From Candidatus Staskawiczbacteria bacterium (GTDB lineage Bacteria > Patescibacteriota > Minisyncoccia > Minisyncoccales > Staskawiczbacteraceae): DNA of 64,000 nt. A program made the position numbers and the translations under genes. The DNA lies in assembly GCA_903831095.1 (NCBI GenBank), contig CAIKWD010000011.1, positions 5,706 through 69,705 on the forward strand. Direction: 5' to 3'. The notes beneath the pieces were generated by a model that saw nothing but the letters and a program-made list of their open reading frames with translations, made no database searches and was not told the DNA's origin. Shown one piece after another: positions 4,062 through 61,122 of the stretch (the stretch's first letter is position 1; every line of letters starts with the position of its first letter).

Positions 4062-4451
4062 TTATTGCTTTTCCAGAAGCTTGCGCTTTTTAGTAGCCAA
4101 AGAAAATAAATATGCAAAAAATACAAAAATTAAAATAAAAATTATAATCCACCAAAAGACATTTGTATTGAATATCTTTTTTGTAATTGACTTGTCTCCT
4201 TGAAAACCGCCGGCATTATTTTTCCCTGAAATATTCCCCAAAGGCTGATTATTAAAGCTGCCTAAGTTTTCATTGGAAATACTAGGGTTAGTATGCCAGT
4301 TTACATTCCCAGAAATATTTGGAACAACTCCCTCTGGTATTGGTTGCATTTTAACTTGGTTTGGAAAAACAGCTTTTTCTAATGCTAAAGTATTTCCAGC
4401 GCAAAAAAATGCAGAAACAACAAGAAATAAAATTATTTTTTTGAAATTCAT
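4062..4451 (-). CDS. Hypothetical exported protein with signal peptide and C-terminal TM anchor
   Basis: 129 aa. N-terminal MNFKKIILFLVVSAFFCAGNTLA, C-terminal WWIIIFILIFVFFAYLF followed by basic residues. Embedded in the pilus operon. Confidence 0.5.
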   Translation of the reverse strand: MNFKKIILFLVVSAFFCAGNTLALEKAVFPNQVKMQPIPEGVVPNISGNVNWHTNPSISNENLGSFNNQPLGNISGKNNAGGFQGDKSITKKIFNTNVFWWIIIFILIFVFFAYLFSLATKKRKLLEKQ

Positions 4452-4458
4452 ATTTAAA

Positions 4459-5847
4459 TTAATCGCTTGTCCAACTTAATATTTGATACCCCGAACTAGA
4501 CAATGGAAAACTTGGCGGAGGCCCATACAAAAGATTGCTGTCATAAGTGTCATAAGTGTTTCTATACCCAGATGTAGTGCCTCCAGAACCGTTTACCCAA
4601 GTCCAAGTCCATTGGCTAAATGTCATTATTGCTCCGTAAATAGAGATACTGTTCTTTATATTTCCAGTATAGTAAAAAAACTGTGCGCCCCCGTTTTGTG
4701 AAATCATAGCTGCATCAATTTCTATATCTGTTGGCGCGTGGTAAGTAACAACTATGTCTTTTTGAGCAATCAGCCCCAAAACATTTGTTCCATCTTTGGC
4801 TACATAAGTTATATTGTTTGGAACATATATTGTGGGAGCAGTTGAAGAATTATATGGAAGCAAAGAAGCAACTACAGTTACCCTGCCTTTTACTGTGCCT
4901 TCAACCCAGGTTTTATCTTCAACATAAATTATGCCGTTGGCTGGAATAGCATTAGTAAACTGCAAAGTCCTGTTGTTATAGTCAATATACTCGTTATGAG
5001 TGTTTCCAGCTGTATCCTGACCACTTGGATTAGATAAAAGGCTTGTTACTTTATAAACACTTACAGTGCCACTACTATTGAAAACCAGTGAATAACCTTG
5101 AGCGTTGGAAGGAGGTAAATAAATTCCCGCGCTTTGCGCGCTACTTTTCATGGTAGCTAAGTCCGAAGTTACTGAAGAAAAATCAACTGCAGGCACTGGA
5201 AACTGCCAAAAATTCTTAACATTTTGAGAGGCCGAACCCCAAACTCCATTTTCAAGCGCCGGACAAGGCGAACCTTGGTTTGAAGAACAAGTATATGTTG
5301 ATTTGGCAGATTGTATGGGTGCGTTACCTACTCCATCAAACCTAATTCCATTATTAGACTGCATTTGTCCGCTTACTGATTCATTGTTTCCAATCCAAAT
5401 AATATCGTTACTTAAAAATGCGTACTTTGCCAAAGAAGCAATTCCAAATCTTGCAGTTATTGTCCTAGTAACCCCAGGGTTTTCATTTGTCCAACCAGTT
5501 GACTTAATTGTCATAATTGTAGACCCTGTAGCTGGAGGCGTTATTATAAGGCTGAATTTTCCTATACTTTGCTGGGTGTCAGTATCCATATAATTATGGA
5601 CATATGGACCCGAAGCATTGGTGCCATCTTTGTAATCATTTGGAAAATGAGCCAAGTGCCACTGATAATAATTTACTCCCGCGTCAGCAATCTGCATCGC
5701 TTCTTCTCTTTGAATAGAAAGGCGCAACAATTTTATTTTCCCGGTAAAAATTGCAACAACTGGAAACATAACCATGGTAAAAATGGCTATGGCAATTATC
5801 AAATAAAGTAGAAGAGTTCCTTTTTGATTGTTTAATTTCGTAATCAT
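4459..5847 (-). CDS. PilX-N-like pilus-associated protein (large, putative minor pilin/tip factor)
   Basis: 462 aa. The N-terminus NQKGTLLLYLIIAIAIFTMV resembles a PilX-type hydrophobic segment but lacks Glu at +5. The rest is Ser/Thr/Gly/Asn-rich and beta-type. Tightly packed after two prepilin genes. Confidence 0.55.
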   Translation of the reverse strand: MITKLNNQKGTLLLYLIIAIAIFTMVMFPVVAIFTGKIKLLRLSIQREEAMQIADAGVNYYQWHLAHFPNDYKDGTNASGPYVHNYMDTDTQQSIGKFSLIITPPATGSTIMTIKSTGWTNENPGVTRTITARFGIASLAKYAFLSNDIIWIGNNESVSGQMQSNNGIRFDGVGNAPIQSAKSTYTCSSNQGSPCPALENGVWGSASQNVKNFWQFPVPAVDFSSVTSDLATMKSSAQSAGIYLPPSNAQGYSLVFNSSGTVSVYKVTSLLSNPSGQDTAGNTHNEYIDYNNRTLQFTNAIPANGIIYVEDKTWVEGTVKGRVTVVASLLPYNSSTAPTIYVPNNITYVAKDGTNVLGLIAQKDIVVTYHAPTDIEIDAAMISQNGGAQFFYYTGNIKNSISIYGAIMTFSQWTWTWVNGSGGTTSGYRNTYDTYDSNLLYGPPPSFPLSSSGYQILSWTSD

Positions 5848-5848
5848 A

Positions 5849-6478
5849 TTAATTTCCCAAGTTATCTTTTACAGACCTTATTGCCGAACCCGCAGAAATT
5901 GAAAACTTACTTGTGTCGTTCTGCTTTATATTGTTTAAAACCATCAAACTCATTTTAACAAATCTTACCTGATTAATATTAACTGGCTGGGCAAGAGCAC
6001 TGGTATTTCCATTGTAATTACCGTCATAATAATAAAACAGTGGACTGCCAGAATTTGATATTCCCGTAGCAACTACTTTTACTGATTCATTCAAAAGGTT
6101 GTAAGACAGCGGACTACCAGAAGGTAAAACAACTCCCTTGTACAAAATGTTTCCGTCTATATAATACCTGATTCTTGCAACTGCAGAATTGGAAACTTTA
6201 TAATTGGAAAAGAAAACTATCTGTGAATCTCCTGTTTGATTTAATGGATAAGATCCGTCAACTCCCGTAACTGAATTCCTAATTTCATTTGTGAAAGTTG
6301 AAAGCGCGGATCTCGCCTGGTCTATATTACTCATGGAAATTACTTCTTGATTGGAATTTATAAAAATATCGCTGAGCATTTTTGAAACTCCAAAAATTAG
6401 CATAACAAAAATTGCCAAAGCTATCATAACCTCTATTAAAGTAAAACCTTTTTGTTTTGCAAATTTATTTATTTCCAT
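5849..6478 (-). CDS. Type IV prepilin-like protein (N-terminal cleavage/methylation motif)
   Basis: MEINKFAKQKG/FTLIEVMIALAIFVMLIF is the canonical G/FTLIE prepilin motif. 209 aa. Confidence 0.85.
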   Translation of the reverse strand: MEINKFAKQKGFTLIEVMIALAIFVMLIFGVSKMLSDIFINSNQEVISMSNIDQARSALSTFTNEIRNSVTGVDGSYPLNQTGDSQIVFFSNYKVSNSAVARIRYYIDGNILYKGVVLPSGSPLSYNLLNESVKVVATGISNSGSPLFYYYDGNYNGNTSALAQPVNINQVRFVKMSLMVLNNIKQNDTSKFSISAGSAIRSVKDNLGN

Positions 6479-27042: not shown

Positions 27043-30000
27043 TTACTGGAATGGAGATATTTCCTTCCACTCTGGCACCGCAGTATTATGGATTGAAATA
27101 GATAAATTAGTTGTTTTACTACAATTTCCAAAATTACCAAATACATCTGGAAGGGTTTTGTCAGTAATTGTTAACGTAATAACATGTACTCCTGCAGTAT
27201 CAAAAGTAATAGGACCAGGGTCAAAAGAAAGAACATTTTGGGAAATAATTTTTTCAATTTTATTATGTCCATTAGCATCTATTCCTCCACCAAAATCCCA
27301 ATCATATACAAAGTTTTTCTCTGCTTCTAGATGATTTGCTACCAAATCTTTACACAAAGGAGATTCAATACCATGAGTATCATTGTAATAACAAATAGAA
27401 TTATCAACAATTGTTATTGGTTCTTTAATCAAGAAATTCTGTTTGTTATTCTCAATGCTTATAGATGGAGCAGGCCATGGATGTGGGCCTTTATTAATAA
27501 GAGCACTTGCCCCAGCTGCAGCCAATGAACCTTTGCTATAGCTTACTGTTACGTTTTGTCCTTCGAATATAGTGCTAGAACTATCCAATGCCAAATTCAC
27601 AATATTTGGGTGAACAAGGTCTAATGAAGCACTAGCAATATTGTATTCAACTCCGCCAACTTTTACTGTAAACTGAGATTTTACCAAAGTTTGAGGATCG
27701 ATAACTTTATCAAAAGATACTGCAACAATTGTACCTTGCTCATTTACTACAATGTTAGTAATTTTAGGAGCTGCAACTGTTGTGGTAAAGGTTAAATAAG
27801 CAGACGCCCAAGTTGTACCAATACTATTAGATGCTTTAGCTGAAAAATAATATAATTTTTCAGAAGTCAAACCTGTAATATCTTTGGAAAAATCTGCTGC
27901 TCCCTGAGCCTGAGAATATGTATAACTATGATCCCATACTCCAGGAGTTTGTCCGCCGTCGTTGTCCCCCCAGTAAACTGTGACAGTTGGATTTTCTCCT
28001 CCTGTATCTGAAATACTTCCATTTATAGTAGCAGTATCTGATGCTACGTTTGTCGCAGGACTTAATGAAATATCAGGAGCTGTTTTCACATTTTCCGCAG
28101 ATTGAGGATAACTTATAAGTACAACTCCAGAACCTCCGCCTGCACAAGCGCCTCCTCCACCTCCTGTATTTGCCATTCCACCAACACTCATATTTCCTCC
28201 TCCACCATATCCACCAACGCCATTATGCCCACTTCCATAGCCGCCTCCGCCTCCTGCAAAATATCCACTTTGACCAAAGTCAATAAATTGAGGAAAATAT
28301 AATCCAACACCTCCATTGCCTCCATACTCTCCATAGCCTGCATTTTCTCCAACCCCTCCAGCGCCTCCTCCACCACTAGCACCAACATCTTCTCCGCAAG
28401 TTCCATGTCCACCATCATTACCTTGGCCAGGAGTCCCAACAGCAGTTCCACAATTCCAATCTTTACCTCCTCCTCCGCCAGAACCACCAGAACCACCATC
28501 ACTATAAGTTGCTCCACCCAAACCTCCACCTATTGCAACAATTCCATCAAAAACTGAATTTTGTCCTTTGCTTTGCCCACCTCCGCCAGCTCCGATTGTT
28601 ACGTTATATGTATTAAAAATTCCTGATGAAAGAACATGAGCATCATAATGTAACAAACCACCAGCTCCTCCTCCGCCACCAATCCAATAACCAGAACAAC
28701 CACCACCTCCACCTCCTGCTACAACAAGAGTTTCAACTTTTTTCAAAATAGCACTGGTGTTGGTAAATACTCCATTAGAATTAAATGCATGGACACATCT
28801 CATATTAGGAGTTGAGGTTCTACTAATATTCACAAGTTTTACATCTCCTCCAGAAGCAGAACAACTTGCCACAAAATCTAAAGAAGCAGTTGGCCAGCTT
28901 GTGCCAATACTGTTGGTTGCAGAAGCAGAAAAATAATACTTTGTACCAGGAATTAATCCGGAAATATTTTTACTGAAGTTGCCCAATCCTTGAGGTTGTG
29001 AATAAGTATATTTATGATCCCAATTGCCTACTATTTTCTTTCCATCATTATCACCCCAGTAAACTGTAACTATTGGATTTTCTCCACCAGTAGAACCAAT
29101 GTTTCCATTTAAAGTAGCAGCATTTAATCCCATATTTGTCGGTACATTTAAATTGACAGACGGAGTTGAAGCACCATAACTTACAATAACAATACCCGAA
29201 CCTCCATTTCCACCTTTATTATTTGCGTTATAATGAGATCCTCCGCCTCCCCCTCCGCCAGTATTTGCCCCAGCATCTCCTCCAGGCATATTAGTCTGGC
29301 TGTTTGGTGAACCACCTCCACCCCCATTTCCATTATTATATCCTGCACCTCCATAAGTTGTACCAACAGCTCCTCCTCCGCCACCTCCTATTCCGCCATT
29401 TCCTCCAGTTGACAAAGTATATGAAGCTCCCCCGCCTCCACCGCCCCAATAATAATCAGTTCCTAAAATATTATTTAAAATTCCAGGCCCCCCATTTGGT
29501 TGATTTGGACCATCTGCACCAGCTCCGCCAGCTCCTCCTCCACCGCCAGAATAATAATTGCTATTATTACTATTTCCTCCTCTATAACCTTGTCCAGAAA
29601 CCCCAACTCCACCAGCTACAGATCTGCTTGGCGTGTATCCTGAAGCTCCTCCGCCTGAACCACCAGCTGCGCCTGCTGCACCTGGAGCGTAGTCTTGATA
29701 TGAACTGCCACCATGTCCTCCACCTATTGCGGTTAAATTTCCAAAACTAGAATTACCGCCATTTGTCGCTGGAATAGAATATTGATGGCTTCCTGGTTGT
29801 CCTTCAGTCCCTGCAGCTGGCGCTCCTTTTCCACCGGCACCAACTACAACAGGCACTGCTGTTCCTGGGGTTAATCCAATTGATTGCCTATAAACTACTC
29901 CTCCGCCTCCGCCTCCACCACCCATATCCATTCCTCCACCTCCACCGCCAGCAACAACAAAAACCTCTGCATAAGATACTCCACTAGCAGGGACAAATGT

Positions 30001-33000
30001 CCCGCTTGATGTAAAAGTGTTTATGCATCTCCCATTATGAGACGTAATAGTTCCTCCCGTACTTGGACATCCTTCCACATGAGTGTAATCGGGGGTAGTA
30101 AAACTTGCTGAATATGGAGCCCACGTAGTACCTGCGGTATTTTTACCTCTTGCAGAAAAATAATATTTAGTTTTAGGATTTAAACTACCTATGTCTATAC
30201 TGAATTTTCCTATTCCTTGAGGTTGAATTGGAGTATCTGGAATAAAACTATGTTGCCATTTCCCTGCTGCTTTCAAACCATCCTCTGTGCCCCAAAATAC
30301 TGTAATAGTTGCATCCAAACCTGTGCTACCCAATGTTCCATTTAATGTGGCAGTTGATGGAGCTATGTTAGTAGCATCATCCATCAATAAATTAGGCTTT
30401 GCTTGTAAATCTATAAAGAAATCATCCTTCAAATTAAAATAACTATTGTAATCTGGATGGGAAACACATGGTATTGTATGCACGCCTCCGCATCCGCTGT
30501 ACCCCCAATATGACCACCAATAACATCCCGATATCGTAGAACAACTCGTTGGGTCTCCATAATAATCCCCACAATTTATATTCCAATCAGGTTCCCAGCA
30601 AGTGCAATCGCTTGTAGTCACACTTCTTCCTAATCTTTTAGCTGAAGGACAATACAATTGCTGGCTGAAATAAGAATCCCAATAATTTGCCACGCAGTTT
30701 CCGTCAGAAGTTCCTTTTACTCCTACACTATCACAATTTCCATCAGCCAAAACATAATTAGACATATAATCTGAACATTGTCCACCCCAATAAGACCAAT
30801 CACTCCCAGGATTATTAGTAAACAAATTTTTGCAGGCTGAAGAGCAGGCGCCATTTGCAGGGTCGCAGGTGCTAGCAGGAGGAATATCTTCACCTGGCAA
30901 AGCATCTCCTAAGACAAATCTCTGATATTGAAATCCTGTAAAATCTCCAGAAGAGATAGTATCTGCTTCACCATATCCATCAAAAAGAAAATCTTTGATT
31001 ATACTCCCACTAGAAGTATTAATTTTTACAAAGTACGGGATATAATATCCATAAGTTGCACCTTCATATTGGTAAGAAGCACCATACAAACTAACAACCC
31101 AGAGATTTTCACTATCATCAATGCTTATTGCGCTTGGGTTATATGAATAATAATGACCCATATAACTGCCAGTAGAGCCATTTATTTTTACTATTCCACT
31201 TTGATTAGTAATATAAACATTATCAGAGCCGTCTATTGCTATTTTACCAAAAACGCCACTAGTGTCACGATCACCGGCCCCGAATGTCCCAATTAAATTT
31301 CCCGTATAACCATCCAATTTTGTAACTGTTCCATCGTAATTATTTACAACCCAAACATTGTTTAAACTATCAACTGCAACTGCTCCAGGCCAAGCTCCAA
31401 CAGTATATGTTCCTAATATAGTTCCAGACTGGTTAACTTTCATAACAACTCCGCCACTTGGATGTGCACCAGCGCCAGTACCATCTGGTTGGTTGGTAAT
31501 CCAGACATTTCCATTGGCATCAGCGGCAATTCCACTGCCAGTGATAGGATAACTTCCTATTAACATCCCTGCTGCACTATATTTTGCGATACCAGAAGTC
31601 AACCTGTAATTAACGTAATTACTATAACTACTCCAGATATTTCCATAAATATCAATTGCTATACCTATATTAGATTCATCTGATAAATAACGAAAATCAT
31701 TATTTCCAGTAGTTGAAGCGCATGTATCTGCGATATGAACATTTCCTAATTCATCTAAGGCTATACCTCCTCCACCTGCATGTCCTTTATTATTGCCTAT
31801 GCCGTCACGATTTCCAGTTTCATAATGATCAACCAAATTCCCAGTTGAGTTGTCAAATTTGGCAACTAAACCATTAGCGTTTGTACACCACCAATCTGGT
31901 GGCACGTATCCCCCCGGGTTATTCATTTGTGCTTCATCATAAGATGTTGGCCCTACTTGAGCACTGTTTAAATAAATATAAGGGGTAGAAACATATGTTG
32001 TTTTGGCAACAAAACTTTTTGATGCTCCTCCTGCCCAAACATCTCCACCTGCATTAGTAACTTTGGCAAAATAATAATATGTTTCTCCTGTCTCCAACTC
32101 AGTAATATTTTGATAAAAATCTCCAGATGTACTAATTTGAGAAACTACAGCACTGTAATCCCAAGAATTGGAATTTGTCCACATATTAGTTGTACCCCAA
32201 TATACAGTGACAATTAAATTGGTTAAGTCAGATGCAGCAATATTTCCTTTTATAACTGCTGAAGAAGACCTTATCTTTGTTGCAGGAAAAAGAGTAATAT
32301 TGCTAGGCAAAGTAGTAAAGTTAGCTGAAGTTAAAGACCAGGCAGTTCCAATACTGTTTGTAGCAGAAACTGTGTAATAATATCTAGTATCAGTATTTAG
32401 TCCTGGAATAAACTTATTAAAATTTCCCATTCTTTGAGGCTGAACTGGGCTTGTGGGTACAGAACTGTGTTGCCAATTGCCTGGCACTTTCCCGCCATCG
32501 CTTGTGCCCCAATATACAGTGACAGTTGGCTTGTCTTTTCCAGTAGATGTAACTTTTCCATTAATAATTGCTGAATTAGGCGCTATATCGGAAGTAGTAT
32601 TTAAACTGACAGCAGGAGGAGCATCTTCTCCAACAAAAAATTTATTTTCCAAATTGAAATATTCCTCGTAATTAGGCAAAACAACACAAGGCAAATTTGT
32701 AGTAAGATCTTTGCATGAGCAATCATCAATATCTATTGTTCTAGCTACTCTTTCACTTGAAGGACATCCAAATCTAGAATTGGTTGTATAATCAAAAATC
32801 CATGCGCAGTCTCCATCTGTGCCAGATATTCCTAATCTGTCGCATAATGGATCTCCACTTATATTGGTATCTAAAGACCAATCATATATGTCGTTACACG
32901 AATTGTCATAGCTATAAGAAAAATCATCACTCCATAAATCACCCAAGTAGAAAATATCTTTACATGTATTAGAACAGCTATTTATAGAAGGATCACATCC

Positions 33001-35637
33001 AAAAGTGCCAGGCAATGTTGTAAAATTCAATGAAGATGCCGGCCAGCTATCTCCAAATTTATTGTGCGCCTTTACAGTAAAATAATATTTGGTTGCATGA
33101 TTTAAACCCATTATATTTTTTAAAAAAGCTCCAACGCCTTGTGGCTGGTCTGGACTTGAAACAACTGAACTGTGTTGCCAGCCAGAAGAATTTTTTTGCC
33201 CATCTATTGTGCCCCAGTATGCAGTGACTGTTGGATTCTCTCCGCCAGTATTGGAAATATTTCCATTAATAGTTGCTACCATTTTTCCTACTTTAGTTGC
33301 AGCACTAATAACAACAGTTGGAACACTAAAAGTAGTAAAACTAAAAAAGGAAGCTGTTGGCCAAGAAATCCCAGCACTATTTGTTGCTCGGGCAGTAAAA
33401 TAATACTTAGTTCCTGGATTTAAACCATTAATAGTTTTACTGAAAACACCAACTCCTTGGGGCTGGTATGGATCAGATACAACAGAACTACTATCCCAAC
33501 CTACCGAAGTATTTCCCTTATTAGTGGTACCCCAAAAAATCATTACAGTTGAATTATCTACTCCAGTATTAGTAATACTTCCGTTTATTGTAGCACTATT
33601 TGAGGTAATATTAGTTACATATGTAGTATAAACAATAGGAAAAGGAGTGGCAGCTAAAGTAGTGAAATTTAAGGAAGATGTAGCCCATATAACCCCAGTG
33701 TCATTAATTGCTCTTGCAGTAACATAATATTTAGTTCCTGGAGTTAATCCAGAAAAATTTTTATAAAAACTTACTACTTCCTGGGGCTGAATTGATGGAC
33801 TGGTTGGATATGAACTATGATCCCAATTTATTGGATTTTTCCCTCCATCTGTAGAACCCCAAAATACTGTTACAGTATTACTGCTACCAAAATAATCTGA
33901 AAAACCTCCACTGACAGTAGCTGTTGTTTGTGTTATAGCCGAGGTACTCAAACTTATTGGTATTACTCCAGCAACAAAACTTAAAGACTGATTAGCCCAA
34001 CTGGTTCCTATATCATTGCTTGCCTTGGCAGTAAAATGATATCTAGTCCCAGCAGTTAATCCGCTGATATTTTTTTCAAATAATCCTGTTTGATTCCCCA
34101 AAACAAAATTATTTTCCCATTTTGATGCATCATTTCCAAAATCATTTTTTCCCCAATATATAGTAACAGACGTGCTACTTCCTCCATCACTAACTACGTT
34201 TCCATTAAGGGTAGCTGTTGTTCCTACTGTATTTGTGGCATCACTCACAGTTACTGTTGGTGGACCATTAGTTTTAAAACCAAGTGAAACAGATGGCCAA
34301 ACAGTTTCAGCAACATTTGTCGCTTTTGCCGTAAAATAATAATTTCTTCCAGGAATCAACCCACTGACATTTAATGAAAAATTTCCAATACCCTGCGGTT
34401 GAGAAGGACTGCTGACAACAGAACTATGTTCCCAGTTTTCTGAAATTTGCCCACCATCGGTTGTGCCCCAATACATGGTAACAGTAGGATTGACTCCTCC
34501 TGTTGATATCACACGACCATTCAAAGTGGCAGTTGTAGACCCAACGGCAGCAGAATTAGTCAAAGCTATATTAAGTCCTCCATTATATGCGACAAGTGTA
34601 GGCGCAGGGGCATTACCACGAAAAATTATCCATCCAGTCAATGGCGGAGTAGAGCTGGTAATACAATTAGTATGGTTCTGTATATCACACAAATAATAAG
34701 GAGTGAATGTTGTATCTGTTGTAGGCATCAATTGCCATCCAGAATCAAATAATATTATATGAGTATCATCTTTGGTATACATTACATGACCATCAGGAGC
34801 TATGTTATTCCAATAAAAACCATTCCAATCAGAAGATCCGGCGTCTTTAACAATATATCCTAAGTTTGATTTTTCAAGTTGAGTATAAAAACTTAAAGAA
34901 GCGGTTGGCCAAATAATATCTTCTGATAAAATGTTTATTGTATTGCTACGTGTTAGATCACTATCTATCCTATCTGACGCAGAAAAATAATATTTAGTGC
35001 CAGGAATCAAATCCGAAACATCCAATAAAAAACTATTACTAGGGCCAGATGTAAGTTGAGTAGAACTGTGTTGCCAATTCTCAGGTACTTTTCCTCCGTC
35101 GGTTGTGCCCCAATACATAGTTATATTATGACCTACTGAATCATCGGTAAAAGCACACTTTAAGGTAGAAGTCGACGACGTTATGCTGACAGCATTATTT
35201 GGTGCGATATCAGTATAATAATCGGTAAAAGTTAAAGGGGCCGAAGGCCATGATATACCTGCACTATTCTCAGCAGAAGCTGAAAAATAATATTTGACCC
35301 CAGAAGTTAAACCATAAAAATCATTAATAAAATTACTTATAGGCTGAGGCTGAGGAGGATTAGTTGGTGCAGAACTGTGTTGCCAATTTCCAGGTACCCT
35401 TCCTCCATCGGTTGTCCCCCAATATATAGTAACACGAGGATTACCTCCAACACTACCAGTTATGTTTCCATTTACACGTATTCGGGAATAATCTGTAAAG
35501 CCAGATGAAATACTAAGAGTAACTGTTAGAGGATCAGACGTAGCAAAAACAGTGTTGCAAATAAAAAAAGCAAAAAACAAGGAAGCTAAAACTACTAGAA
35601 ATAGCTGAACTTTTATTTTTGCTTTTTTAAGTGACAT
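27043..35637 (-). CDS. Giant secreted mosaic surface protein (2864 aa): FN3-like repeats, NHL-type beta-propeller, two glycine-rich domains, Ig-like and PKD-like C-terminus
   Basis: Signal/anchor MSLKKAKIKVQLFLVVLASLFFAFFICNTVFA. Twelve units carry (V/I)T(V/I/M)(Y/F)WG..DGG....W.HS...PQ...PGTKYYF.A.A.N..G..W. Six NHL-like blades (GIALDELGNVHIAD, GIAIDIYGNIWSS, GIAADANGNVWITN, AVAVDSLNNVWVVN, KIAIDGSDNVYITN, AISIDDSENLWVVS). Two blocks start ..F.S.G.F.......(V/L)VVAGGGGGG followed by long G-runs. C-terminal YDWDFGGG. Confidence 0.85.
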   Translation of the reverse strand: MSLKKAKIKVQLFLVVLASLFFAFFICNTVFATSDPLTVTLSISSGFTDYSRIRVNGNITGSVGGNPRVTIYWGTTDGGRVPGNWQHSSAPTNPPQPQPISNFINDFYGLTSGVKYYFSASAENSAGISWPSAPLTFTDYYTDIAPNNAVSITSSTSTLKCAFTDDSVGHNITMYWGTTDGGKVPENWQHSSTQLTSGPSNSFLLDVSDLIPGTKYYFSASDRIDSDLTRSNTINILSEDIIWPTASLSFYTQLEKSNLGYIVKDAGSSDWNGFYWNNIAPDGHVMYTKDDTHIILFDSGWQLMPTTDTTFTPYYLCDIQNHTNCITSSTPPLTGWIIFRGNAPAPTLVAYNGGLNIALTNSAAVGSTTATLNGRVISTGGVNPTVTMYWGTTDGGQISENWEHSSVVSSPSQPQGIGNFSLNVSGLIPGRNYYFTAKATNVAETVWPSVSLGFKTNGPPTVTVSDATNTVGTTATLNGNVVSDGGSSTSVTIYWGKNDFGNDASKWENNFVLGNQTGLFEKNISGLTAGTRYHFTAKASNDIGTSWANQSLSFVAGVIPISLSTSAITQTTATVSGGFSDYFGSSNTVTVFWGSTDGGKNPINWDHSSYPTSPSIQPQEVVSFYKNFSGLTPGTKYYVTARAINDTGVIWATSSLNFTTLAATPFPIVYTTYVTNITSNSATINGSITNTGVDNSTVMIFWGTTNKGNTSVGWDSSSVVSDPYQPQGVGVFSKTINGLNPGTKYYFTARATNSAGISWPTASFFSFTTFSVPTVVISAATKVGKMVATINGNISNTGGENPTVTAYWGTIDGQKNSSGWQHSSVVSSPDQPQGVGAFLKNIMGLNHATKYYFTVKAHNKFGDSWPASSLNFTTLPGTFGCDPSINSCSNTCKDIFYLGDLWSDDFSYSYDNSCNDIYDWSLDTNISGDPLCDRLGISGTDGDCAWIFDYTTNSRFGCPSSERVARTIDIDDCSCKDLTTNLPCVVLPNYEEYFNLENKFFVGEDAPPAVSLNTTSDIAPNSAIINGKVTSTGKDKPTVTVYWGTSDGGKVPGNWQHSSVPTSPVQPQRMGNFNKFIPGLNTDTRYYYTVSATNSIGTAWSLTSANFTTLPSNITLFPATKIRSSSAVIKGNIAASDLTNLIVTVYWGTTNMWTNSNSWDYSAVVSQISTSGDFYQNITELETGETYYYFAKVTNAGGDVWAGGASKSFVAKTTYVSTPYIYLNSAQVGPTSYDEAQMNNPGGYVPPDWWCTNANGLVAKFDNSTGNLVDHYETGNRDGIGNNKGHAGGGGIALDELGNVHIADTCASTTGNNDFRYLSDESNIGIAIDIYGNIWSSYSNYVNYRLTSGIAKYSAAGMLIGSYPITGSGIAADANGNVWITNQPDGTGAGAHPSGGVVMKVNQSGTILGTYTVGAWPGAVAVDSLNNVWVVNNYDGTVTKLDGYTGNLIGTFGAGDRDTSGVFGKIAIDGSDNVYITNQSGIVKINGSTGSYMGHYYSYNPSAISIDDSENLWVVSLYGASYQYEGATYGYYIPYFVKINTSSGSIIKDFLFDGYGEADTISSGDFTGFQYQRFVLGDALPGEDIPPASTCDPANGACSSACKNLFTNNPGSDWSYWGGQCSDYMSNYVLADGNCDSVGVKGTSDGNCVANYWDSYFSQQLYCPSAKRLGRSVTTSDCTCWEPDWNINCGDYYGDPTSCSTISGCYWWSYWGYSGCGGVHTIPCVSHPDYNSYFNLKDDFFIDLQAKPNLLMDDATNIAPSTATLNGTLGSTGLDATITVFWGTEDGLKAAGKWQHSFIPDTPIQPQGIGKFSIDIGSLNPKTKYYFSARGKNTAGTTWAPYSASFTTPDYTHVEGCPSTGGTITSHNGRCINTFTSSGTFVPASGVSYAEVFVVAGGGGGGMDMGGGGGGGGVVYRQSIGLTPGTAVPVVVGAGGKGAPAAGTEGQPGSHQYSIPATNGGNSSFGNLTAIGGGHGGSSYQDYAPGAAGAAGGSGGGASGYTPSRSVAGGVGVSGQGYRGGNSNNSNYYSGGGGGAGGAGADGPNQPNGGPGILNNILGTDYYWGGGGGGASYTLSTGGNGGIGGGGGGAVGTTYGGAGYNNGNGGGGGSPNSQTNMPGGDAGANTGGGGGGGSHYNANNKGGNGGSGIVIVSYGASTPSVNLNVPTNMGLNAATLNGNIGSTGGENPIVTVYWGDNDGKKIVGNWDHKYTYSQPQGLGNFSKNISGLIPGTKYYFSASATNSIGTSWPTASLDFVASCSASGGDVKLVNISRTSTPNMRCVHAFNSNGVFTNTSAILKKVETLVVAGGGGGGCSGYWIGGGGGAGGLLHYDAHVLSSGIFNTYNVTIGAGGGGQSKGQNSVFDGIVAIGGGLGGATYSDGGSGGSGGGGGKDWNCGTAVGTPGQGNDGGHGTCGEDVGASGGGGAGGVGENAGYGEYGGNGGVGLYFPQFIDFGQSGYFAGGGGGYGSGHNGVGGYGGGGNMSVGGMANTGGGGGACAGGGSGVVLISYPQSAENVKTAPDISLSPATNVASDTATINGSISDTGGENPTVTVYWGDNDGGQTPGVWDHSYTYSQAQGAADFSKDITGLTSEKLYYFSAKASNSIGTTWASAYLTFTTTVAAPKITNIVVNEQGTIVAVSFDKVIDPQTLVKSQFTVKVGGVEYNIASASLDLVHPNIVNLALDSSSTIFEGQNVTVSYSKGSLAAAGASALINKGPHPWPAPSISIENNKQNFLIKEPITIVDNSICYYNDTHGIESPLCKDLVANHLEAEKNFVYDWDFGGGIDANGHNKIEKIISQNVLSFDPGPITFDTAGVHVITLTITDKTLPDVFGNFGNCSKTTNLSISIHNTAVPEWKEISPFQ

Positions 35638-55236: not shown

Positions 55237-56688
55237 TTACAATAATTTCTTAAGCAACTCCTGCACTTTGTCAGGTTTTGCAGTACCTCTTGTAACTGCC
55301 ATAACTTGTCCGGCTAAAAATTGCAATGAATTCTGTTTGCCGGCTTTATAATCCTCAATTGCCTTTGGATTTTTTGCCATAACTTCCTTAATAATTTTTT
55401 CAAGCTCAGAATCGTCTGACATCTGTCTCCAATTGTTGTTGTCCACAACTTCAGAAGGGTCAGACCCAGTGTTAAACATATCAACAACAACCATTTTAGC
55501 TACTTTACTGGAAATTTCCCCTTTATAAATCATCTTCACAAACTCGGCAAAATTTTCCGGAGTAATTTTAAACTCAGCCTCAACAAATTCTTTTCCACCT
55601 AAAAGTCCTTGTACATCAGAAATTAAGTAATTAGCAACCAGCTTTGAAACTTTTTTATGAGCTTCACCTTTTTCCTCTTCTGTTGTCCATTCTTCAAATT
55701 CAGAAACAACCTTCTCAAAATATTCGCTCAAATCTTTGTTGACAACAAAAAACTCAACAGACTTCTCGTCCAAACCAAATTCTTTTTTAAACCTTTCTCT
55801 TTTTTCTTCTGGTAATTCAGGCATACCTAATTCTACCTCTTTTATATAATTTTTGTCAAAATGCATTAAAGGCAAATCAGGTTCTGGAAAATATCTGTAG
55901 TCATGTGCCTCCTCTTTTTCTCTTTGGGAAAATGTAATTTCCTTCTTGTCATGCCAACCTCTGGTTTCTTGTACAATTTTTTCTCCAGCTTCCAAAATTT
56001 CTTCCTGACGCTTTATTTCAAAATCAACTGCCTTTTCAACAACCTTAAAAGAATTTAGATTTTTAATTTCAACTTTAGTGCCCAATTTATCATTTTTACT
56101 TATACTTATATTTACTTCAACCCTCATTTGCCCTTTTTCCATATTGGCATCGGAAACTCCCAAATATTTCAAAATCATCTGAAGCTCCTGTGCGAATTCT
56201 CTAGCTTCTTTCCCAGATGTAATATCTGGTTCTGTTACTAATTCCATTAATGGTACTCCTGCTCTATTTAAGTTGACCAAAGAATAATCTGCGCCTTCGG
56301 GATGCATTAAGCTTCCAGTATCTTCTTCCAAGTGTATCCTAGTTATTCTTATCTTATGCCCCTCAACTTCCAAATATCCACCCTCACACAAAGGCTGGTC
56401 GTACTGGGAAATCTGGTATCCTTTCGGCAAATCTGGATAAAAATAATTTTTTCTATCAAACTTGGAATTTTCTGCAATTTTACAGTGCAAAGCCAACCCT
56501 GTTTTAATAACCTTTTTAATTGCCTCTTCGTTGGCAACAGGTAAGGTTCCAGGCTGAGCCGAACAAACTGGGCAAATATTGAAATTTGGCCTTTTTTCAT
56601 CGGGATCATTTTTGCATGAGCAAAACATCTTGGTATTTGTTTTTAACTCTGCGTGTATTTCCAATCCTATTGTTACTTTATATGCCAT
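55237..56688 (-). CDS. gatB: Asp-tRNA(Asn)/Glu-tRNA(Gln) amidotransferase subunit B
   Basis: YKVTIGLEIHAELKT.., NRAGVPLMELVTEPD and a C-terminal YqeY-like tail. Confidence 0.9.
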   Translation of the reverse strand: MAYKVTIGLEIHAELKTNTKMFCSCKNDPDEKRPNFNICPVCSAQPGTLPVANEEAIKKVIKTGLALHCKIAENSKFDRKNYFYPDLPKGYQISQYDQPLCEGGYLEVEGHKIRITRIHLEEDTGSLMHPEGADYSLVNLNRAGVPLMELVTEPDITSGKEAREFAQELQMILKYLGVSDANMEKGQMRVEVNISISKNDKLGTKVEIKNLNSFKVVEKAVDFEIKRQEEILEAGEKIVQETRGWHDKKEITFSQREKEEAHDYRYFPEPDLPLMHFDKNYIKEVELGMPELPEEKRERFKKEFGLDEKSVEFFVVNKDLSEYFEKVVSEFEEWTTEEEKGEAHKKVSKLVANYLISDVQGLLGGKEFVEAEFKITPENFAEFVKMIYKGEISSKVAKMVVVDMFNTGSDPSEVVDNNNWRQMSDDSELEKIIKEVMAKNPKAIEDYKAGKQNSLQFLAGQVMAVTRGTAKPDKVQELLKKLL

Positions 56689-56700
56689 GTTATTATTTTA

Positions 56701-56934
56701 CTATTTTTTATCTTTATAAAACCAATTATAAATTCCTAAAGCCCAACTAAAAAGATATATTATACTTAGAAAAAATACTCCCCACTGTTTGTTTAAATAA
56801 GAAGTGATAAGCCAAAATGGTTGTGAAGCCAAGCCAAGTACAAATCCCCACTTGTTCTTTTTTGCAACCAATATAACAGCGGCTACTCCAAATATTGCAA
56901 TTCCTATTTGAGCGATTGTATCTAGCGAAATCAT
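56701..56934 (-). CDS. Small 3-TM membrane protein, pattern reminiscent of one triple-helix repeat of PnuC-family transporters
   Basis: 77 aa: TM1, then AKKNKWGF, TM2, NKQWG, TM3, GIYNWF. Compare the recalled PnuC C-terminal repeat (..TRKYVENWLLW..., ...G..MW). Last gene of the nucleotide cluster. Confidence 0.4.
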   Translation of the reverse strand: MISLDTIAQIGIAIFGVAAVILVAKKNKWGFVLGLASQPFWLITSYLNKQWGVFFLSIIYLFSWALGIYNWFYKDKK

Positions 56935-56949
56935 TTATAAGTAATTAAA

Positions 56950-57654
56950 TTATTTTAACTGAGCCTTTACCAACGTGGCGCTCTGGCCATCTTCTGCTAT
57001 TTGAAAATCGTCAAAAAGCACTGGCACACGCTGTTTTACTTCTTTTAACAACTTTACCATAACTTGTCTTATTTCCCAATGAGCATCCATTGCGCACCTC
57101 ATTTTGAATATGTGCCTCCATTCCCTTAAATTGGCAGTAACCACTATTTGTGCCTCTATTCCATTTGGAAGTATTTGCCTGGCGTCTTGAGGCAACCAGC
57201 CTTGCTGGCGCAAACCCTTGTACATTTGTTCATTTAATTCTACAAAATCTTTAAAGGAAACTTTAACTGGAGCGTCTGACCCAGGTATTTTCAACTCAAC
57301 TGCTTTAGTTTCCAAATCTCTATTTGGCGGAGCAATTACTGTAAAATCTTTTTCGTCTACATATCTTGTAGACTCCTGTGTAAAGGAAGCTATTCTATGC
57401 CTTACCAATTCATGAGTCAATCCGCGTGAGACACCATTTAACTCAACAATCATACAAGAATGTTCAAATACAGATTCGTGGCCCCTTTTCCTAAGAAATT
57501 CTATGAATTTCAAGGATGACTCATCTGTAATTTTTTCTCTGCTTTGATAAGCTGTTCTTCCAGCTGTTTCCATTAACTGTAAGGGATTTTCACCACTGAC
57601 CCCAGTCATTAAAGCTAAAATTTTAAAACTTCCCTCATTTTGTAAAATTTTCAT
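56950..57654 (-). CDS. thyX: Flavin-dependent thymidylate synthase
   Basis: ThyX motif HELVRHRIASFTQESTRY (RHR-x7-S). 234 aa. Confidence 0.9.
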   Translation of the reverse strand: MKILQNEGSFKILALMTGVSGENPLQLMETAGRTAYQSREKITDESSLKFIEFLRKRGHESVFEHSCMIVELNGVSRGLTHELVRHRIASFTQESTRYVDEKDFTVIAPPNRDLETKAVELKIPGSDAPVKVSFKDFVELNEQMYKGLRQQGWLPQDARQILPNGIEAQIVVTANLREWRHIFKMRCAMDAHWEIRQVMVKLLKEVKQRVPVLFDDFQIAEDGQSATLVKAQLK

Positions 57655-58355
57655 AATTTTTGTTTTACTACTTCTATTATTTTTTGACTTATTATTTCTG
57701 GTGATAATAAATTACCTTTTTCTAGACATTCAATAACTTTAAAATCTTTAGGAAATTCCTTTGAGGCCAACAAATAAGAATTTAAGGCATTAGCTAAATG
57801 ATTCTCGCTTTTTTCGTGTATATCCTGCTTTCCTGAATTTCCAAGATAACTTTTTCTTCTTGCCTGCTTTTTTTTGTCAGTTATTTTGTGAGACATTTTC
57901 AAGGAAAATTCCGGAGATGTTTTCAATATAAAAGTGTAATCTGGTTTGGGAATTCCAAAAATGCCATATTCCAAATCATAAAGCCAACTGACATATTTTT
58001 TCCAATCTTTTTTATTTTTTAGTTTTCCTCCTTGGTGACCTATGTTTGAAACTAAATACCTATCGGCAACAACTATTTTTCCTTCGCTTAACCATTTTTT
58101 AATTTTAAAACTTGCGTCATATCTATCAATTGCATAAAAAATAGAAGCCACATAAGGACCAACTTCTTCTGCATTTCCATATTTTCCAGTCAAATAGTCG
58201 TCAACCATAGCAGAAGATCTCTCTCCATGCTGAGGAAAATCTATTTTTTCTACCTTATATCTGTTTTTCATACAATAATCAGCCAACAGTTTTGTCTGAG
58301 TAGCCTTACCACATCCGTCGATACCTTCAAAAACAAAAAATTTTCCCTTTTTCAT
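57651..58355 (-). CDS. tmk: Thymidylate kinase-like (dTMP kinase family)
   Basis: P-loop FVFEGIDGCGKATQ and DRY motif VVADRYLVSNIGHQGG. Overlaps thyX by ATGA. Confidence 0.75.
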   Translation of the reverse strand: MKKGKFFVFEGIDGCGKATQTKLLADYCMKNRYKVEKIDFPQHGERSSAMVDDYLTGKYGNAEEVGPYVASIFYAIDRYDASFKIKKWLSEGKIVVADRYLVSNIGHQGGKLKNKKDWKKYVSWLYDLEYGIFGIPKPDYTFILKTSPEFSLKMSHKITDKKKQARRKSYLGNSGKQDIHEKSENHLANALNSYLLASKEFPKDFKVIECLEKGNLLSPEIISQKIIEVVKQKL

Positions 58356-58972
58356 AATAAAATTTCTTCTAATTCTTTAATATTGTGTACTAAATAGTCT
58401 GGATTCTTCGATTTTAAATATTCCTCAGTGTTAAAGCCCCAAGTTACTGCAATTGTTTTTATGCCATTTTCTCTACCAGCAATAATTTCATGATTGCTAT
58501 CACCAATAAAACAAGTATCCTCTGGATTTAAATTAAATTTTAAAGCCATTTCTTTCAACGATACACCTTTAATTAGAGACCGCGCTACTACATTATCAAA
58601 AACATCTTCCAATCCGTATTCTTTTAATTCAGGAAAAATAGTTTCTGATAAATCAGTACTTATCACGCCCAAAAAATAACCTTTTCCCTTTAACCTTTTT
58701 ATTAACTCACACATTCCGGGAATAGATTTTGATTTCGGACAATCTCTTCCTAAAATTATTTTTTTATATACTGGTAATTGTTCTTCTTCAGTTAAATTGG
58801 GTAAATATTTATTATAGAAAAGCATGTGAGGCTGTTCCCAATTTTCCTGCAATTCTTTCTCCGAAATTTCTTTGATTCCAAATTCTTTAAAAATATTGTT
58901 AACAACCCATAAATGGCACTCTAGTGCGTCTTTTATTACGCCAGACCAGTCAAAAATAACATTCTTAAACAT
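58352..58972 (-). CDS. HAD-superfamily hydrolase (phosphatase-like)
   Basis: Motif I VIFDWSGVI (the residue at D+2 is Ser), motif II GVISTD, motif IV FIGDSNHEI. Overlaps tmk by ATGA. Confidence 0.65.
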   Translation of the reverse strand: MFKNVIFDWSGVIKDALECHLWVVNNIFKEFGIKEISEKELQENWEQPHMLFYNKYLPNLTEEEQLPVYKKIILGRDCPKSKSIPGMCELIKRLKGKGYFLGVISTDLSETIFPELKEYGLEDVFDNVVARSLIKGVSLKEMALKFNLNPEDTCFIGDSNHEIIAGRENGIKTIAVTWGFNTEEYLKSKNPDYLVHNIKELEEILL

Positions 58973-59517
58973 TAAATTGAACCAATTATTGTTTTAATTT
59001 GCTCTTGTAGTTGTTCCTTTGAGCCATTATTATCTATCCTAAAATCTGCTTCTGCCCCAATAGTTGTTATTAAAGATTCAGCTTCAGCTTTTCCCATTTC
59101 AATAAATTGTTCGAATGTAACGTCGTCGTCGGCCTTCTCACCCCTTATCTTCATTCTTTCCCATCTTATTTTTGGATCTGCAGTTATATAAATAAGTTTT
59201 CCCCCAATTGATTTTAATGCCTTAAAGTCGTCTGGCCTTCTGACGCCATTCAAAATAACAATTCCATCGCTGATTTTTTCAATTTTCTTTACCAAGGCTT
59301 TCACCAAAATGTCTCCGCCAAACCTTTCACGCAAGGCCGAACTTATCCATTGTTGGTCTTCCCTTTTAACGTCATCAAAAAATATTTTCAAAATATCTGT
59401 GAGAGCGTCTGAAAACCTAAGAAAATACACATCCTTATAGTTTGCCTTTAAATATTCACAGACTGTGTCTTTACCTGAAGCCATTTCTCCAACAATGCCA
59501 ATTATTTTTTTTGCCAT
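58972..59517 (-). CDS. P-loop kinase, deoxynucleoside-monophosphate-kinase-like
   Basis: IIGIVGEMASGKDT P-loop, of the GxxxSGKDT type recalled from phage T5-type dNMP kinases and dephospho-CoA-kinase-like proteins. 181 aa. Confidence 0.5.
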   Translation of the reverse strand: MAKKIIGIVGEMASGKDTVCEYLKANYKDVYFLRFSDALTDILKIFFDDVKREDQQWISSALRERFGGDILVKALVKKIEKISDGIVILNGVRRPDDFKALKSIGGKLIYITADPKIRWERMKIRGEKADDDVTFEQFIEMGKAEAESLITTIGAEADFRIDNNGSKEQLQEQIKTIIGSI

Positions 59518-59531
59518 ATTATTTTTAGTAA

Positions 59532-59891
59532 TTAATTTGTTTTTTCATTCCAATCTATTCTATCGCGTTTACCAGCGTCTTTTTCCGTAAAAACTCCGCT
59601 TGAATATCTCTTCTTTAGTTTATCTACATTTTCATTAAATAAGTCCTGCATATCCCAGCCATAGAAATTGCATATTGCAGCTATGTACCATAATGTATCT
59701 CCCAAGTTTTCCCTTATGCCCGGCTTTTGGTCGTTATTGTGCGAATACGTCTTTTTAATGCACCCAGCTACGTCACCAGCTTCTCCGCTTATTCCCAGGC
59801 CCCATGTCATTATCTCCTTCTCCGGGTCTTCATATTTTTTAGTAACTGATTTGCAAAACTCTTGATAATTTTTGAAAAAATCTTTTTCCAT
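59532..59891 (-). CDS. MazG-like nucleoside triphosphate pyrophosphohydrolase (small all-alpha type)
   Basis: LGISGEAGDVAG and ENLGDTLWYIAAI metal-binding helices (the EaGE...E..GD.LWY pattern). Confidence 0.7.
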   Translation of the reverse strand: MEKDFFKNYQEFCKSVTKKYEDPEKEIMTWGLGISGEAGDVAGCIKKTYSHNNDQKPGIRENLGDTLWYIAAICNFYGWDMQDLFNENVDKLKKRYSSGVFTEKDAGKRDRIDWNEKTN

Positions 59892-59893
59892 TT

Positions 59894-60502
59894 TTATAAT
59901 TTAGATAAATAATCCCTATATACTATTTGGACCCAGACTCCCGGGTTTCCCTTTATATGCTCGCCTATGTCTTTTATATCCATAAGTTGGCCTACAATGT
60001 TTTCTGTTTCCTTAACTGAAATTTCTGGGCTGTCTCCAACAAAAAGATAAACCAATCCTATATGTACGCTCTCAACTGGGCGGGAATTGTCGCTTATTAT
60101 GCCAATGAATTTCTTTTCTGTTATGTTTCCCTTAAAACTAACTTCTTCGTTCCACTCACGCATTGTACCTGCTTCTATAATATCCTGGCCTTCTGTAACA
60201 TCTTCCTTATTTATATGCCCGCCCAAACCAATCTGATAATTGTCTATTAGCCTTTTTTCTGTGATATTTTTTAAATAATTAAAGACAAAATATTTGTCCT
60301 GATACTTGAAAATTATGTGCGGTATTATCTGCTGAAAAGAAGTGTCATTCTCCATGTCTCCCCTTCTTTTAAATTCACAATTATTTTTAATCAAATCAAT
60401 ATAATAATCCAAGTTGTCAGTTTTCAATCCCTGCCATTTTCCTTTTTTAAAAAGAATATCTGACTTTATTACTAAAACTTGTTCGTCGTCTTTATTGGGC
60501 AT
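59894..60502 (-). CDS. Nudix-like phosphoesterase (MutT-family-like)
   Basis: FQQIIPHIIF..., then GLGGHINKEDV...EAGTMREWNEEVSF, resembling a degenerate Nudix box (REx2EE). Confidence 0.5.
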   Translation of the reverse strand: MPNKDDEQVLVIKSDILFKKGKWQGLKTDNLDYYIDLIKNNCEFKRRGDMENDTSFQQIIPHIIFKYQDKYFVFNYLKNITEKRLIDNYQIGLGGHINKEDVTEGQDIIEAGTMREWNEEVSFKGNITEKKFIGIISDNSRPVESVHIGLVYLFVGDSPEISVKETENIVGQLMDIKDIGEHIKGNPGVWVQIVYRDYLSKL

Positions 60503-60503
60503 A

Positions 60504-61025
60504 CTATTGATTTTTATACTCTACTACAGTGTTTTCTAAAGCAACAAATTGTATTCCTGTTTTTGCAAACAATTCAACGGATTTTGCGTCTGAATGGTAC
60601 CGCTTTATAGCCACTAGTTTTTTAATACCAACACGCAATATTCTCATAGCACAATTGTAACAAGGAGCCATTTTGCAATACATAGTAGCCCCTTCAAGCC
60701 TTATTCCATCTTTAGCACATTGCAATATAGCATTTTCCTCAGCATGTAAAGTTCTAACGCAATGTTGAGATTGTGTGCCATCTTCATGGATAACTGTATT
60801 CATCATATGGCCAACTTCATCGCAATGAGGCATTCCTGGAGGAGCTCCAGCATATCCAGTTGCTAAAATAGTATTATGCGGGCTGACAATAACAGAAGCT
60901 GCACGGCCTCTGTCGCAAGTGCCTCTTCTACCTAGTGGCTCTAGTAAGGCCAAAAAATATTTATCCCATGATGGACGAACATATTTTTCTTTTATTTCCT
61001 GGGGAGTTTGTTTTACTTCTTCCAT
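60504..61025 (-). CDS. dCMP deaminase (ComEB/CDA zinc-deaminase family)
   Basis: Zinc motifs LHAEENAI and PCYNCA. The N-terminal SWDKYFLAL is typical of dCMP deaminases. Confidence 0.85.
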   Translation of the reverse strand: MEEVKQTPQEIKEKYVRPSWDKYFLALLEPLGRRGTCDRGRAASVIVSPHNTILATGYAGAPPGMPHCDEVGHMMNTVIHEDGTQSQHCVRTLHAEENAILQCAKDGIRLEGATMYCKMAPCYNCAMRILRVGIKKLVAIKRYHSDAKSVELFAKTGIQFVALENTVVEYKNQ

Positions 61026-61073
61026 GTTTTATTTTTTTATTTAATAGTTAGATTATTTTAACACTTATGCAAA

Positions 61074-61102
61074 ACAAAAAGCAAGAGTTTTTTCCCCTTG
61101 CT
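61074..61102 (-). terminator. Terminator after rplK
   Basis: Minus strand: AGCAAG-GGGAAAAAACT-CTTGCT followed by TTTTGTTTTG. Confidence 0.55.
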
Positions 61103-61122
61103 TTTTTGTATATTTATTGTGT

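Follow-up and report, generated by a model that had tools for sequence, protein, structure and literature searches.

The dCMP-deaminase route to deoxythymidine triphosphate (dTTP), which leads through dCMP deaminase, a thymidylate synthase (ThyX, or ThyA together with dihydrofolate reductase, DHFR) and thymidylate kinase (Tmk), is classical in Gram-positive bacteria and eukaryotes. According to a known rule, DHFR goes with ThyA and not with ThyX. Phage nucleotide-metabolism sets likewise combine dCMP deaminase and ThyX, together with MazG and a T4 gp1-type dNMP kinase. In Bacillus, a gene for a Nudix protein lies inside a deoxynucleotide-supply operon, nrdI-nrdE-nrdF-ymaB, whose other products form a ribonucleotide reductase (RNR). 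A PNAS paper on the class Ib RNR of B. subtilis (PMC5960316) calls YmaB a Nudix homolog, gives dNTP pyrophosphohydrolase activity as a preliminary result and regards its function as not yet established.

Here, we analyze a gene cluster in a 64-kb stretch of DNA (the window, i.e., the whole sequence that was examined) from a Candidatus Staskawiczbacteria-like genome of the Candidate Phyla Radiation (CPR, Patescibacteria). Between rplK and gatB, eight minus-strand genes encode a dCMP deaminase (g1), a YmaB/TM1382-type Nudix-fold protein (g2), a MazG-like protein (g3), a P-loop kinase (g4), a HAD hydrolase (g5), Tmk (g6), ThyX (g7) and a half-size PnuC-like membrane protein (g8), numbered in transcription order and with positions counted within the window (Table 1). 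We regard it as probable that this cluster is a vertically inherited housekeeping operon for thymidylate supply that occupies a fixed rplK-gatB site.

The strongest argument comes from related genomes. With g2 as anchor, a single genome of each GTDB species was scanned. The 47 loci obtained, mostly of Candidatus Staskawiczbacteria, were compared with the window by tblastn, clustering of open reading frames (ORFs) and Pfam searches. All loci whose contig reaches far enough have nusG-rplK upstream and gatB downstream; gatB itself is 57-87% identical in the relatives and always flanks the thymidylate module. Components were counted over the 27 complete rplK-gatB intervals. A cytosine-nucleotide deaminase of any type is encoded in 26 of them (dCMP deaminase in 21, a longer deaminase in three, Dcd, PF22769, in two), Tmk of either type in 25 and a thymidylate synthase of any type in 24 (ThyA in 19, small ThyX in two, large two-domain ThyX in three). 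Tmk belongs to the window type in nine intervals (59-82% identical to g6 in the relatives) and in 16 to a second, more canonical type at the same place (PF02223 E-value 1e-41, 26-32% identical to g6). DHFR accompanies ThyA in all 19 ThyA intervals, which matches the classical thyA-folA/thyX rule exactly. Small-ThyX orthologs (70-74% identical) are confined among the related loci to L028, L036 and L041, the last of which has the layout closest to the window (g1, g2, g4, g5, g6, g7, gatB). Because analogous parts have been exchanged between relatives, the interval represents a conserved thymidylate cassette with in-situ replacement, and the window holds one of its richest versions. The original prediction, which was based on the window alone, had proposed a synteny survey for scattering of the genes in relatives. 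The core genes are not scattered; the genes for MazG, kinase, HAD protein and mini-PnuC are patchy (g4-type kinase in nine of the 27 intervals, g5-type HAD in three, MazG and mini-PnuC in one each), as are IMPase-like and HD proteins (two each).

Modularity extends to gene fusions. In locus L021 (8146-10314), which lies outside the complete set, Tmk is fused in frame to the large ThyX in a protein of 722 aa (PF02223 and PF02511), and by tblastn, long ORFs of L005, L022 and L037 (732-772 aa) are similar to Tmk as well as to large ThyX, the one in L005 being possibly overextended at its 5' end by the ORF caller. Single loci add canonical Nudix proteins, DeoC aldolase, serine hydroxymethyltransferase (SHMT) or HIT/cytidylyltransferase pairs, and the rplK-gatB site collects deoxynucleotide-metabolism genes more generally.

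Several loci deviate from this pattern in their own ways. An added gene, coding for an aldolase of the DeoC family or for a canonical Nudix protein (PF00293), was located at L047:2374-3135, L027:5750-6208, L042:7748-8227 and L084:5231-5683. Four loci (L033, L035, L040, L044; about 4200-6400) encode a deaminase of 278 aa, extended at the N-terminus, and carry an antisense pair of HIT and cytidylyltransferase genes just upstream of the Nudix gene. Their ThyA is divergent, with 46-50% identity to the others and canonical PCH and PFNIASY motifs. A hydroxymethylase function of this ThyA was considered and dismissed, since it retains PCH and the Asn of PFNIASY and is accompanied by DHFR. The thymidylate synthase slot of L002 (7608-9281) is filled by a protein of 557 aa whose N-terminal domain is MtrA-like (PF04208, E-value 2e-34) and whose C-terminus looks ThyA-like by eye (...NPCF...RAND...), possibly an atypical enzyme resembling thymidylate synthases.

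Profile, PDB and fold searches uphold all seven enzyme calls of the original prediction at the family level, that of the Nudix protein through PDB 3e57 and the fold search only. The deaminase g1 reaches 73.4 bits with PF00383 (cut-off 25), matches phrog_174 (E-value 2e-37) and carries the zinc motifs of dCMP deaminases, with HAE in LHAEENA and PCxxC in APCYNCA. As it scores 110 bits with TIGR02571 ComEB (E-value 1e-31) and misses the equivalog cut-off of 219, we treat it as a member of the family and not as a ComEB equivalog. The kinase g6 (PF02223, 83 bits versus a cut-off of 27; NF005923, E-value 3e-28) has the P-loop GIDGCGKAT of a Tmk and represents a divergent type, because its 75.5 bits with TIGR00041 remain slightly under the cut-off of 83.25. 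Both PF02511 (178.7 bits versus 24.8) and the equivalog model TIGR02170 (150 bits versus 87.9) recognize g7 as ThyX, and the canonical RHR-x7-S motif that had been reported for it is present as RHRIASFTQES.

Table 1 Features of the rplK-gatB interval, listed in transcription order with positions in the 64-kb window
Feature	Position	Strand	Length	Profile or other basis	Assignment
rplK	61123-61560				Gene preceding the cluster
Hairpin and T run	61076-61106	-		12-pair stem	Terminator-like, downstream of rplK; upstream cluster boundary
g1	60504-61025	-	173 aa	PF00383	dCMP deaminase, zinc-dependent, ComEB/Dctd type; dCMP to dUMP
g2	59894-60502	-	202 aa	PDB 3e57 and fold search	YmaB/TM1382-type (COG4112) Nudix-fold protein
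g3	59532-59891	-	119 aa	PF03819	Small MazG-like all-alpha (d)NTP pyrophosphohydrolase, accessory
g4	58972-59517	-	181 aa	AAA_18	P-loop nucleotide kinase, phage-dNMP-kinase/PRK08356/UPF0200 type, accessory
g5	58352-58972	-	206 aa	PF13419	HAD-IA hydrolase, COG0546, PpaX/phosphoglycolate-phosphatase-like, accessory
g6	57651-58355	-	234 aa	PF02223	Thymidylate kinase; dTMP to dTDP
g7	56950-57654	-	234 aa	PF02511	ThyX, flavin-dependent thymidylate synthase, small type; dUMP to dTMP
g8	56701-56934	-	77 aa	PF04973	Half-size PnuC-like membrane protein
gatB	55237-56688	-		ORF; PF02934 and PF02637 on identical neighbouring gene	Downstream boundary, co-directional

Taken together, the cluster could operate as follows. 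dCTP and dUTP, which would stem from ribonucleotide reduction encoded elsewhere, would be cleaved by the Nudix protein g2 to dCMP and dUMP plus pyrophosphate (PPi), with the MazG protein g3 as a presumed second or sanitising pyrophosphohydrolase. dCMP would then be deaminated to dUMP by g1, dUMP converted to dTMP by g7 and dTMP phosphorylated to dTDP by g6, as suggested by family assignment for g1 and g6 and by family and motif for g7. The remaining genes g4, g5 and g8 are optional add-ons that probably adjust or feed the dNMP pool through dNMP phosphorylation, through dephosphorylation or PPi removal, and through nucleoside entry, respectively. The sequence from dCMP through dUMP and dTMP to dTDP had already been proposed and is backed by the conserved synteny in relatives.

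The first step of this scheme depends on g2, which has no match among Pfam (including PF00293) or NCBIfam profiles. Its residues 6-183 align with PDB 3e57 (TM1382, 'putative Nudix hydrolase'; E-value 1.3e-20), and its AlphaFold2 (AF2) model, with a predicted local distance difference test (pLDDT) score of 90.8, retrieved the same structure (Foldseek E-value 3e-18, TM score 0.82-0.90), followed by NudC, MTH1 and NudI. With more than 200 Nudix structures matched at E-values of 1e-3 or below, the model has the Nudix alpha/beta/alpha fold. Of the Nudix box GX5EX7REUXEEXGU, the REx2EE core (R115, E116, E119, E120) is in register and does not vary. D101, likewise invariant, stands in place of the first Gly, D107 takes the position of the Glu at +6, and the last Gly is lost. 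g2 also matches phrog_8902 (E-value 6e-29). Its closest homologs are proteins of Candidatus Staskawiczbacteria and other Patescibacteria with 58-97% identity. We take COG4112, which carries the JGI label 'predicted NUDIX family phosphoesterase', to be the YmaB family; a literature search on COG4112, TM1382 and 3E57 found nothing useful.

The link to YmaB emerged through an SPbeta-like phage of Bacillus, whose g2 homolog led to chromosomal relatives in Bacillaceae. One of these, from B. glycinifermentans (P0390), is the last gene in the order ymaF-miaA-hfq-x-nrdI-nrdE-nrdF-P0390 and thus has the position of ymaB in B. subtilis; it shares 33% identity with g2 (E-value 2e-26), which, with the 3e57 match, establishes the homology of g2 to YmaB/TM1382. 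Viral relatives of g2 (25-38% identical, 28 IMG/VR loci with neighbours assigned by Pfam) have the large subunit of an RNR (NrdE-type or NrdD) encoded within 7 kb in ten of the 28 loci, often as the immediate neighbour, and the others lie among replication genes such as those for Pol III alpha, uracil-DNA glycosylase and primase. In annotated phage records, g2 homologs are found in surroundings that consist nearly entirely of entries named 'hypothetical protein' (SPbetaL1, phage 6ec). Among the 47 related loci, the gene directly before g2 encodes dCMP deaminase (30 loci) or Dcd (three) in 33 of the 44 with a visible upstream side, and the deaminase gene often overlaps g2; downstream follow Tmk, the kinase, the HAD gene or MazG. 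Since g2 is kept beside a dCMP or dCTP deaminase, the simplest role that we infer is to hydrolyse dCTP, dUTP or both to the monophosphate. The family thus appears to be tied repeatedly to deoxynucleotide supply and here, specifically, to a step that requires dCMP or dUMP, and we propose that g2 is a pyrimidine dNTP pyrophosphohydrolase giving dCMP and dUMP. A metagenomic g2 homolog of 318 aa (P0053), encoded on a contig of 999 bp, joins a g2-type Nudix domain to one of the MazG type (PF03819), either through a genuine fusion or through a sequencing frameshift across the 2-nt gap.

The gene arrangement in the window is compatible with cotranscription. ORF listing and sequence reproduced the coordinates of the seven minus-strand ORFs at 56950-61025 exactly, and seven is the number of enzyme genes but not the total, since g8 had been overlooked. 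From g1 to g7, the junctions measure +1, +2, +14, -1 (TAATG), -4 (ATGA) and -4 (ATGA) nt; g8 starts 15 nt past thyX and gatB 12 nt past g8, so that the packed run extends to gatB and comprises nine genes. Upstream, the hairpin after rplK is unusually stable (-16.4 kcal/mol, z = -4.8; none of 200 shuffled sequences folds equally well), with a spacer of 97 nt between the end of rplK and g1. Close spacing is no evidence by itself because it is the norm in this genome (93.6% of the window is coding, 58% of same-strand junctions measure 15 nt or less, and the median is 12.5 nt); the signal lies in the functional coherence of the genes and their conservation in relatives. Translational coupling, as claimed originally, is consistent with the overlaps, from which alone it can be deduced: none of the nine consecutive starts from g1 to gatB (56690-61045, minus strand) is preceded by a Shine-Dalgarno-like motif, and the 20 nt upstream of these starts are A/T-rich throughout.

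Some observations weigh against the interpretation as a thymidylate-supply operon. As g2 served as search anchor, its presence in 100% of the loci is given by construction. One complete interval, L012, encodes no deaminase. The single operon is something we infer from spacing and the upstream terminator, and no promoter was identified. Our substrates for g2 and g3 are deduced solely from context, and the phosphatase role of g5 is uncertain given the missing Asp at D+2 (see below). Finally, Ndk, SHMT, a folate enzyme and RNR are all missing from the cluster. When the window was searched by tblastn, queries for NrdE, NrdD, Dcd, ThyA, DHFR, SHMT, HD and IMPase, a set that did not include Ndk and other folate enzymes, gave no match. 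The conversion of dTDP to dTTP, the provision of methylene-tetrahydrofolate and ribonucleotide reduction must therefore be located elsewhere, and the earlier description of the cluster as a self-contained dTTP supply has to be abandoned.

The newly recognized g8 bears on the origin of the substrates. It matches PF04973 with 31.1 bits (cut-off 27.3) over profile positions 4-68 of 175 as well as phrog_2421, and stays under the cut-off of TIGR01528. The AF2 model (pLDDT 94.2) has three helical segments and PnuC (4qtn) as top fold match (TMq 0.71, root-mean-square deviation 1.9 Å), with SemiSWEETs next; the Foldseek E-values are non-significant because the protein is so short. PnuC mediates facilitated diffusion of nicotinamide riboside. 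In contrast to PnuC, with its about 230 aa and its full architecture of two bundles and 7-8 transmembrane helices, g8 is homologous to the first triple-helix bundle only, and it resembles SemiSWEETs in being sized as one bundle. g8 may be a homodimeric nucleoside facilitator. Its family is large: 842 representative clusters match, those listed have mostly 72-110 aa, and no description of half-size PnuC proteins was found in the searched literature. A phage search with g8 returned five partial matches only.

If g8 imports nucleosides, the cluster might serve mainly salvage: deoxynucleosides entering via a g8 homodimer, or dNMPs from imported DNA, would be trapped or processed by g4 and Tmk, dCMP would be turned into dTMP, and the HAD, MazG and Nudix proteins would balance the pool. 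This explanation overlaps with thymidylate supply as outlined above; where the substrates come from is the sole difference. It gains from the PnuC match of g8 by profile and fold, from the recurrence of g8 at the same locus in L015, L025, L027, L039, L042 and L084 (another Staskawiczbacteria genome has the order DHFR, mini-PnuC, Nudix, gatB), from the resemblance of g4 to nucleotide and nucleoside kinases of the P-loop type, with a weak dNK match, and from genes for a DeoC aldolase (L047), for HD phosphohydrolases and for additional canonical Nudix proteins in the intervals of relatives. It would also suit CPR bacteria, which are thought to depend on scavenged nucleotides. However, g8 is present in one and g4 in nine of the 27 complete intervals without consistent co-occurrence, and the constant core of deaminase, Nudix protein, Tmk and thymidylate synthase requires no transporter. 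Outside the lineage, g8 relatives occur in unrelated contexts, with neighbours that have no homology to each other or to the cluster, which argues against a general transporter-kinase pairing. We therefore consider a mainly salvage-based function rather unlikely. Conceivable, though less likely than not, is the combined proposal that the YmaB/TM1382-type Nudix protein is a housekeeping pyrimidine dNTP pyrophosphatase, standing in for dUTPase or dCTPase, and that the 77-aa PnuC-like protein is a SemiSWEET-style homodimeric nucleoside facilitator of the same pool.

The three accessory enzymes are less easily interpreted than the core. g3 is a member of the MazG family (PF03819, 34.1 bits versus a cut-off of 22; phrog_229, E-value 7e-28) with the acidic metal-binding motifs GEAGD and ENLGD; a PDB sequence search returned no solved homolog, and MazG occupies the same position in two of the 47 relatives only (L005, L013). 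g5 clearly belongs to the HAD family (PF13419, 90.8 bits; PpaX E-value 9e-24, under the cut-off) and has motifs II to IV, the last reading GDSNHE. The Ser at D+2 that the original prediction had pointed out is real: motif I reads FDWSGV (residues 8-12), and its Ser is invariant in nine of nine orthologs from related loci. In the nearest solved homologs, by contrast, the motif is FDLDGT. As this conserved Ser replaces the general acid/base Asp, an ordinary phosphatase mechanism is doubtful for g5, which may remove PPi or dephosphorylate dNMPs. g4 matches AAA_18 (43.2 bits), NF006226/PRK08356 (E-value 7e-26) and, over its full length, phrog_139 'dNMP kinase' (E-value 2.5e-26); its solved relatives are the uncharacterised PDB entries 3lw7 and 3h0k (E-value 1e-8). 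The phage-type profile PF21448 DNMK aligns only its positions 1-51 (of 232) with residues 4-55 of g4 and yields 27.0 bits, just short of the 27.1 required for membership. The P-loop reads SGKDT, which we take to be typical of phage dNMP kinases. On this evidence, g4 is a P-loop nucleotide kinase-like protein that probably phosphorylates a dNMP.

Resemblance to phage proteins had led to the suggestion of a horizontal origin or a non-canonical product, i.e., a phage-derived module for nucleotide-pool reprogramming or base hypermodification. All eight genes match PHROG families, with strong matches for g2, MazG and the kinase, and the accessory genes are patchy among relatives; the phage-like character of the enzyme set thus holds at the level of families. 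Derivation from phages does not follow. The chromosomal position is fixed in 47 genomes, and in a comparison with 50,697 phage records the top identities were 38% for g2, 40.5% for MazG, 30% for the kinase, 43% for ThyX and 48% for the deaminase (30-48% overall), versus 46-82% for orthologs of the lineage. The GC content of the cluster (0.31-0.36) lies inside the usual range of the window. ThyX retains its canonical motif and passes the equivalog cut-off, the deaminase is canonical, and PCH, together with the Asn in PFNIASY that specifies dUMP, is preserved in the ThyA proteins of relatives. Neither an altered thymidylate-synthase homolog nor a hydroxymethylase or a glycosyl-, amino- or other transferase was found, no further enzyme families are present in the cluster, and phage structural or integrase genes are absent nearby. 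Unlike phage nucleotide-metabolism sets, with which it shares the families of dCMP deaminase, MazG, dNMP kinase and ThyX, the cluster is chromosomal, conserved and without modification enzymes. A phage-derived module is accordingly highly unlikely, and the patchiness of the accessory genes reflects gene flux, most simply loss or exchange among related genomes.

The combination of kinase and deaminase could also be read as anti-phage defence by nucleotide depletion, with a dCTP deaminase of the fused kinase-plus-deaminase kind split into separate genes and aided by dNTP hydrolases. g4 indeed matches the kinase-like part (positions 156-330, E-value 8.6e-12) and g1 the deaminase part (positions 436-490, E-value 1.5e-17) of the PADLOC dCTPase model, and both match NF041025. 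The scores of 56.7 and 23.1 bits, however, are far from the cut-off of 400 bits, g2, g3, g5, g7 and g8 have no PADLOC match, and g1 by itself makes up a whole small dCMP deaminase of the canonical kind, with a gene that is separate from and not adjacent to that of the kinase. The genes are moreover co-linear with anabolic Tmk and thymidylate synthase, and, unlike defence islands, their site keeps its place among ribosomal and translation genes in every relative. On scores, gene architecture and anabolic context we reject this explanation, which is extremely improbable. The matches of g4 and g1 to the two halves of the fused model nevertheless hint at a functional link between kinases of this type and deaminases.

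Two further features of the window are unrelated to nucleotide metabolism. In the window and in every related locus (L001-L047), rplK is not followed by rplA, and a tblastn search of the window with E. coli L1 gave no match. Part of the Parcubacteria reportedly lacks L1, with which the absence of rplA may fit. At 27043-35637, the minus strand contains a giant ORF of 2864 aa, whose portion at 28-30 kb has a GC content of 0.44-0.47 (0.31-0.38 is usual in the window) and a strongly negative GC skew.

With respect to the known systems, the pathway proposed for the thymidylate-supply operon is textbook and leaves the understanding of dTTP synthesis unchanged. Two small puzzles accompany it, namely the large family of half-size PnuC-like proteins and the HAD clade in which Ser replaces the catalytic Asp+2. 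The cluster uses the enzymes of the classical dCMP-deaminase route; unlike there, the steps are collected at one site, parts are swapped between sister species and a Nudix protein is a constant member. Its value is therefore comparative: at a fixed CPR site, ThyA plus DHFR, ThyX and a Tmk-ThyX fusion, dCMP and dCTP deaminase, and two Tmk types replace each other in a natural swap experiment. The YmaB-type Nudix protein as constant partner of the deaminase provides a concrete role hypothesis for the orphan family of the B. subtilis nrd operon, and the reading as dNTP pyrophosphatase, if true, assigns a role to this family in the RNR operons of both Bacillus and phages. As in the Bacillus operon, the Nudix gene resides inside an operon for deoxynucleotide supply; its partners are RNR subunits in Bacillus and dCMP or dCTP deaminase, Tmk and thymidylate synthase here.

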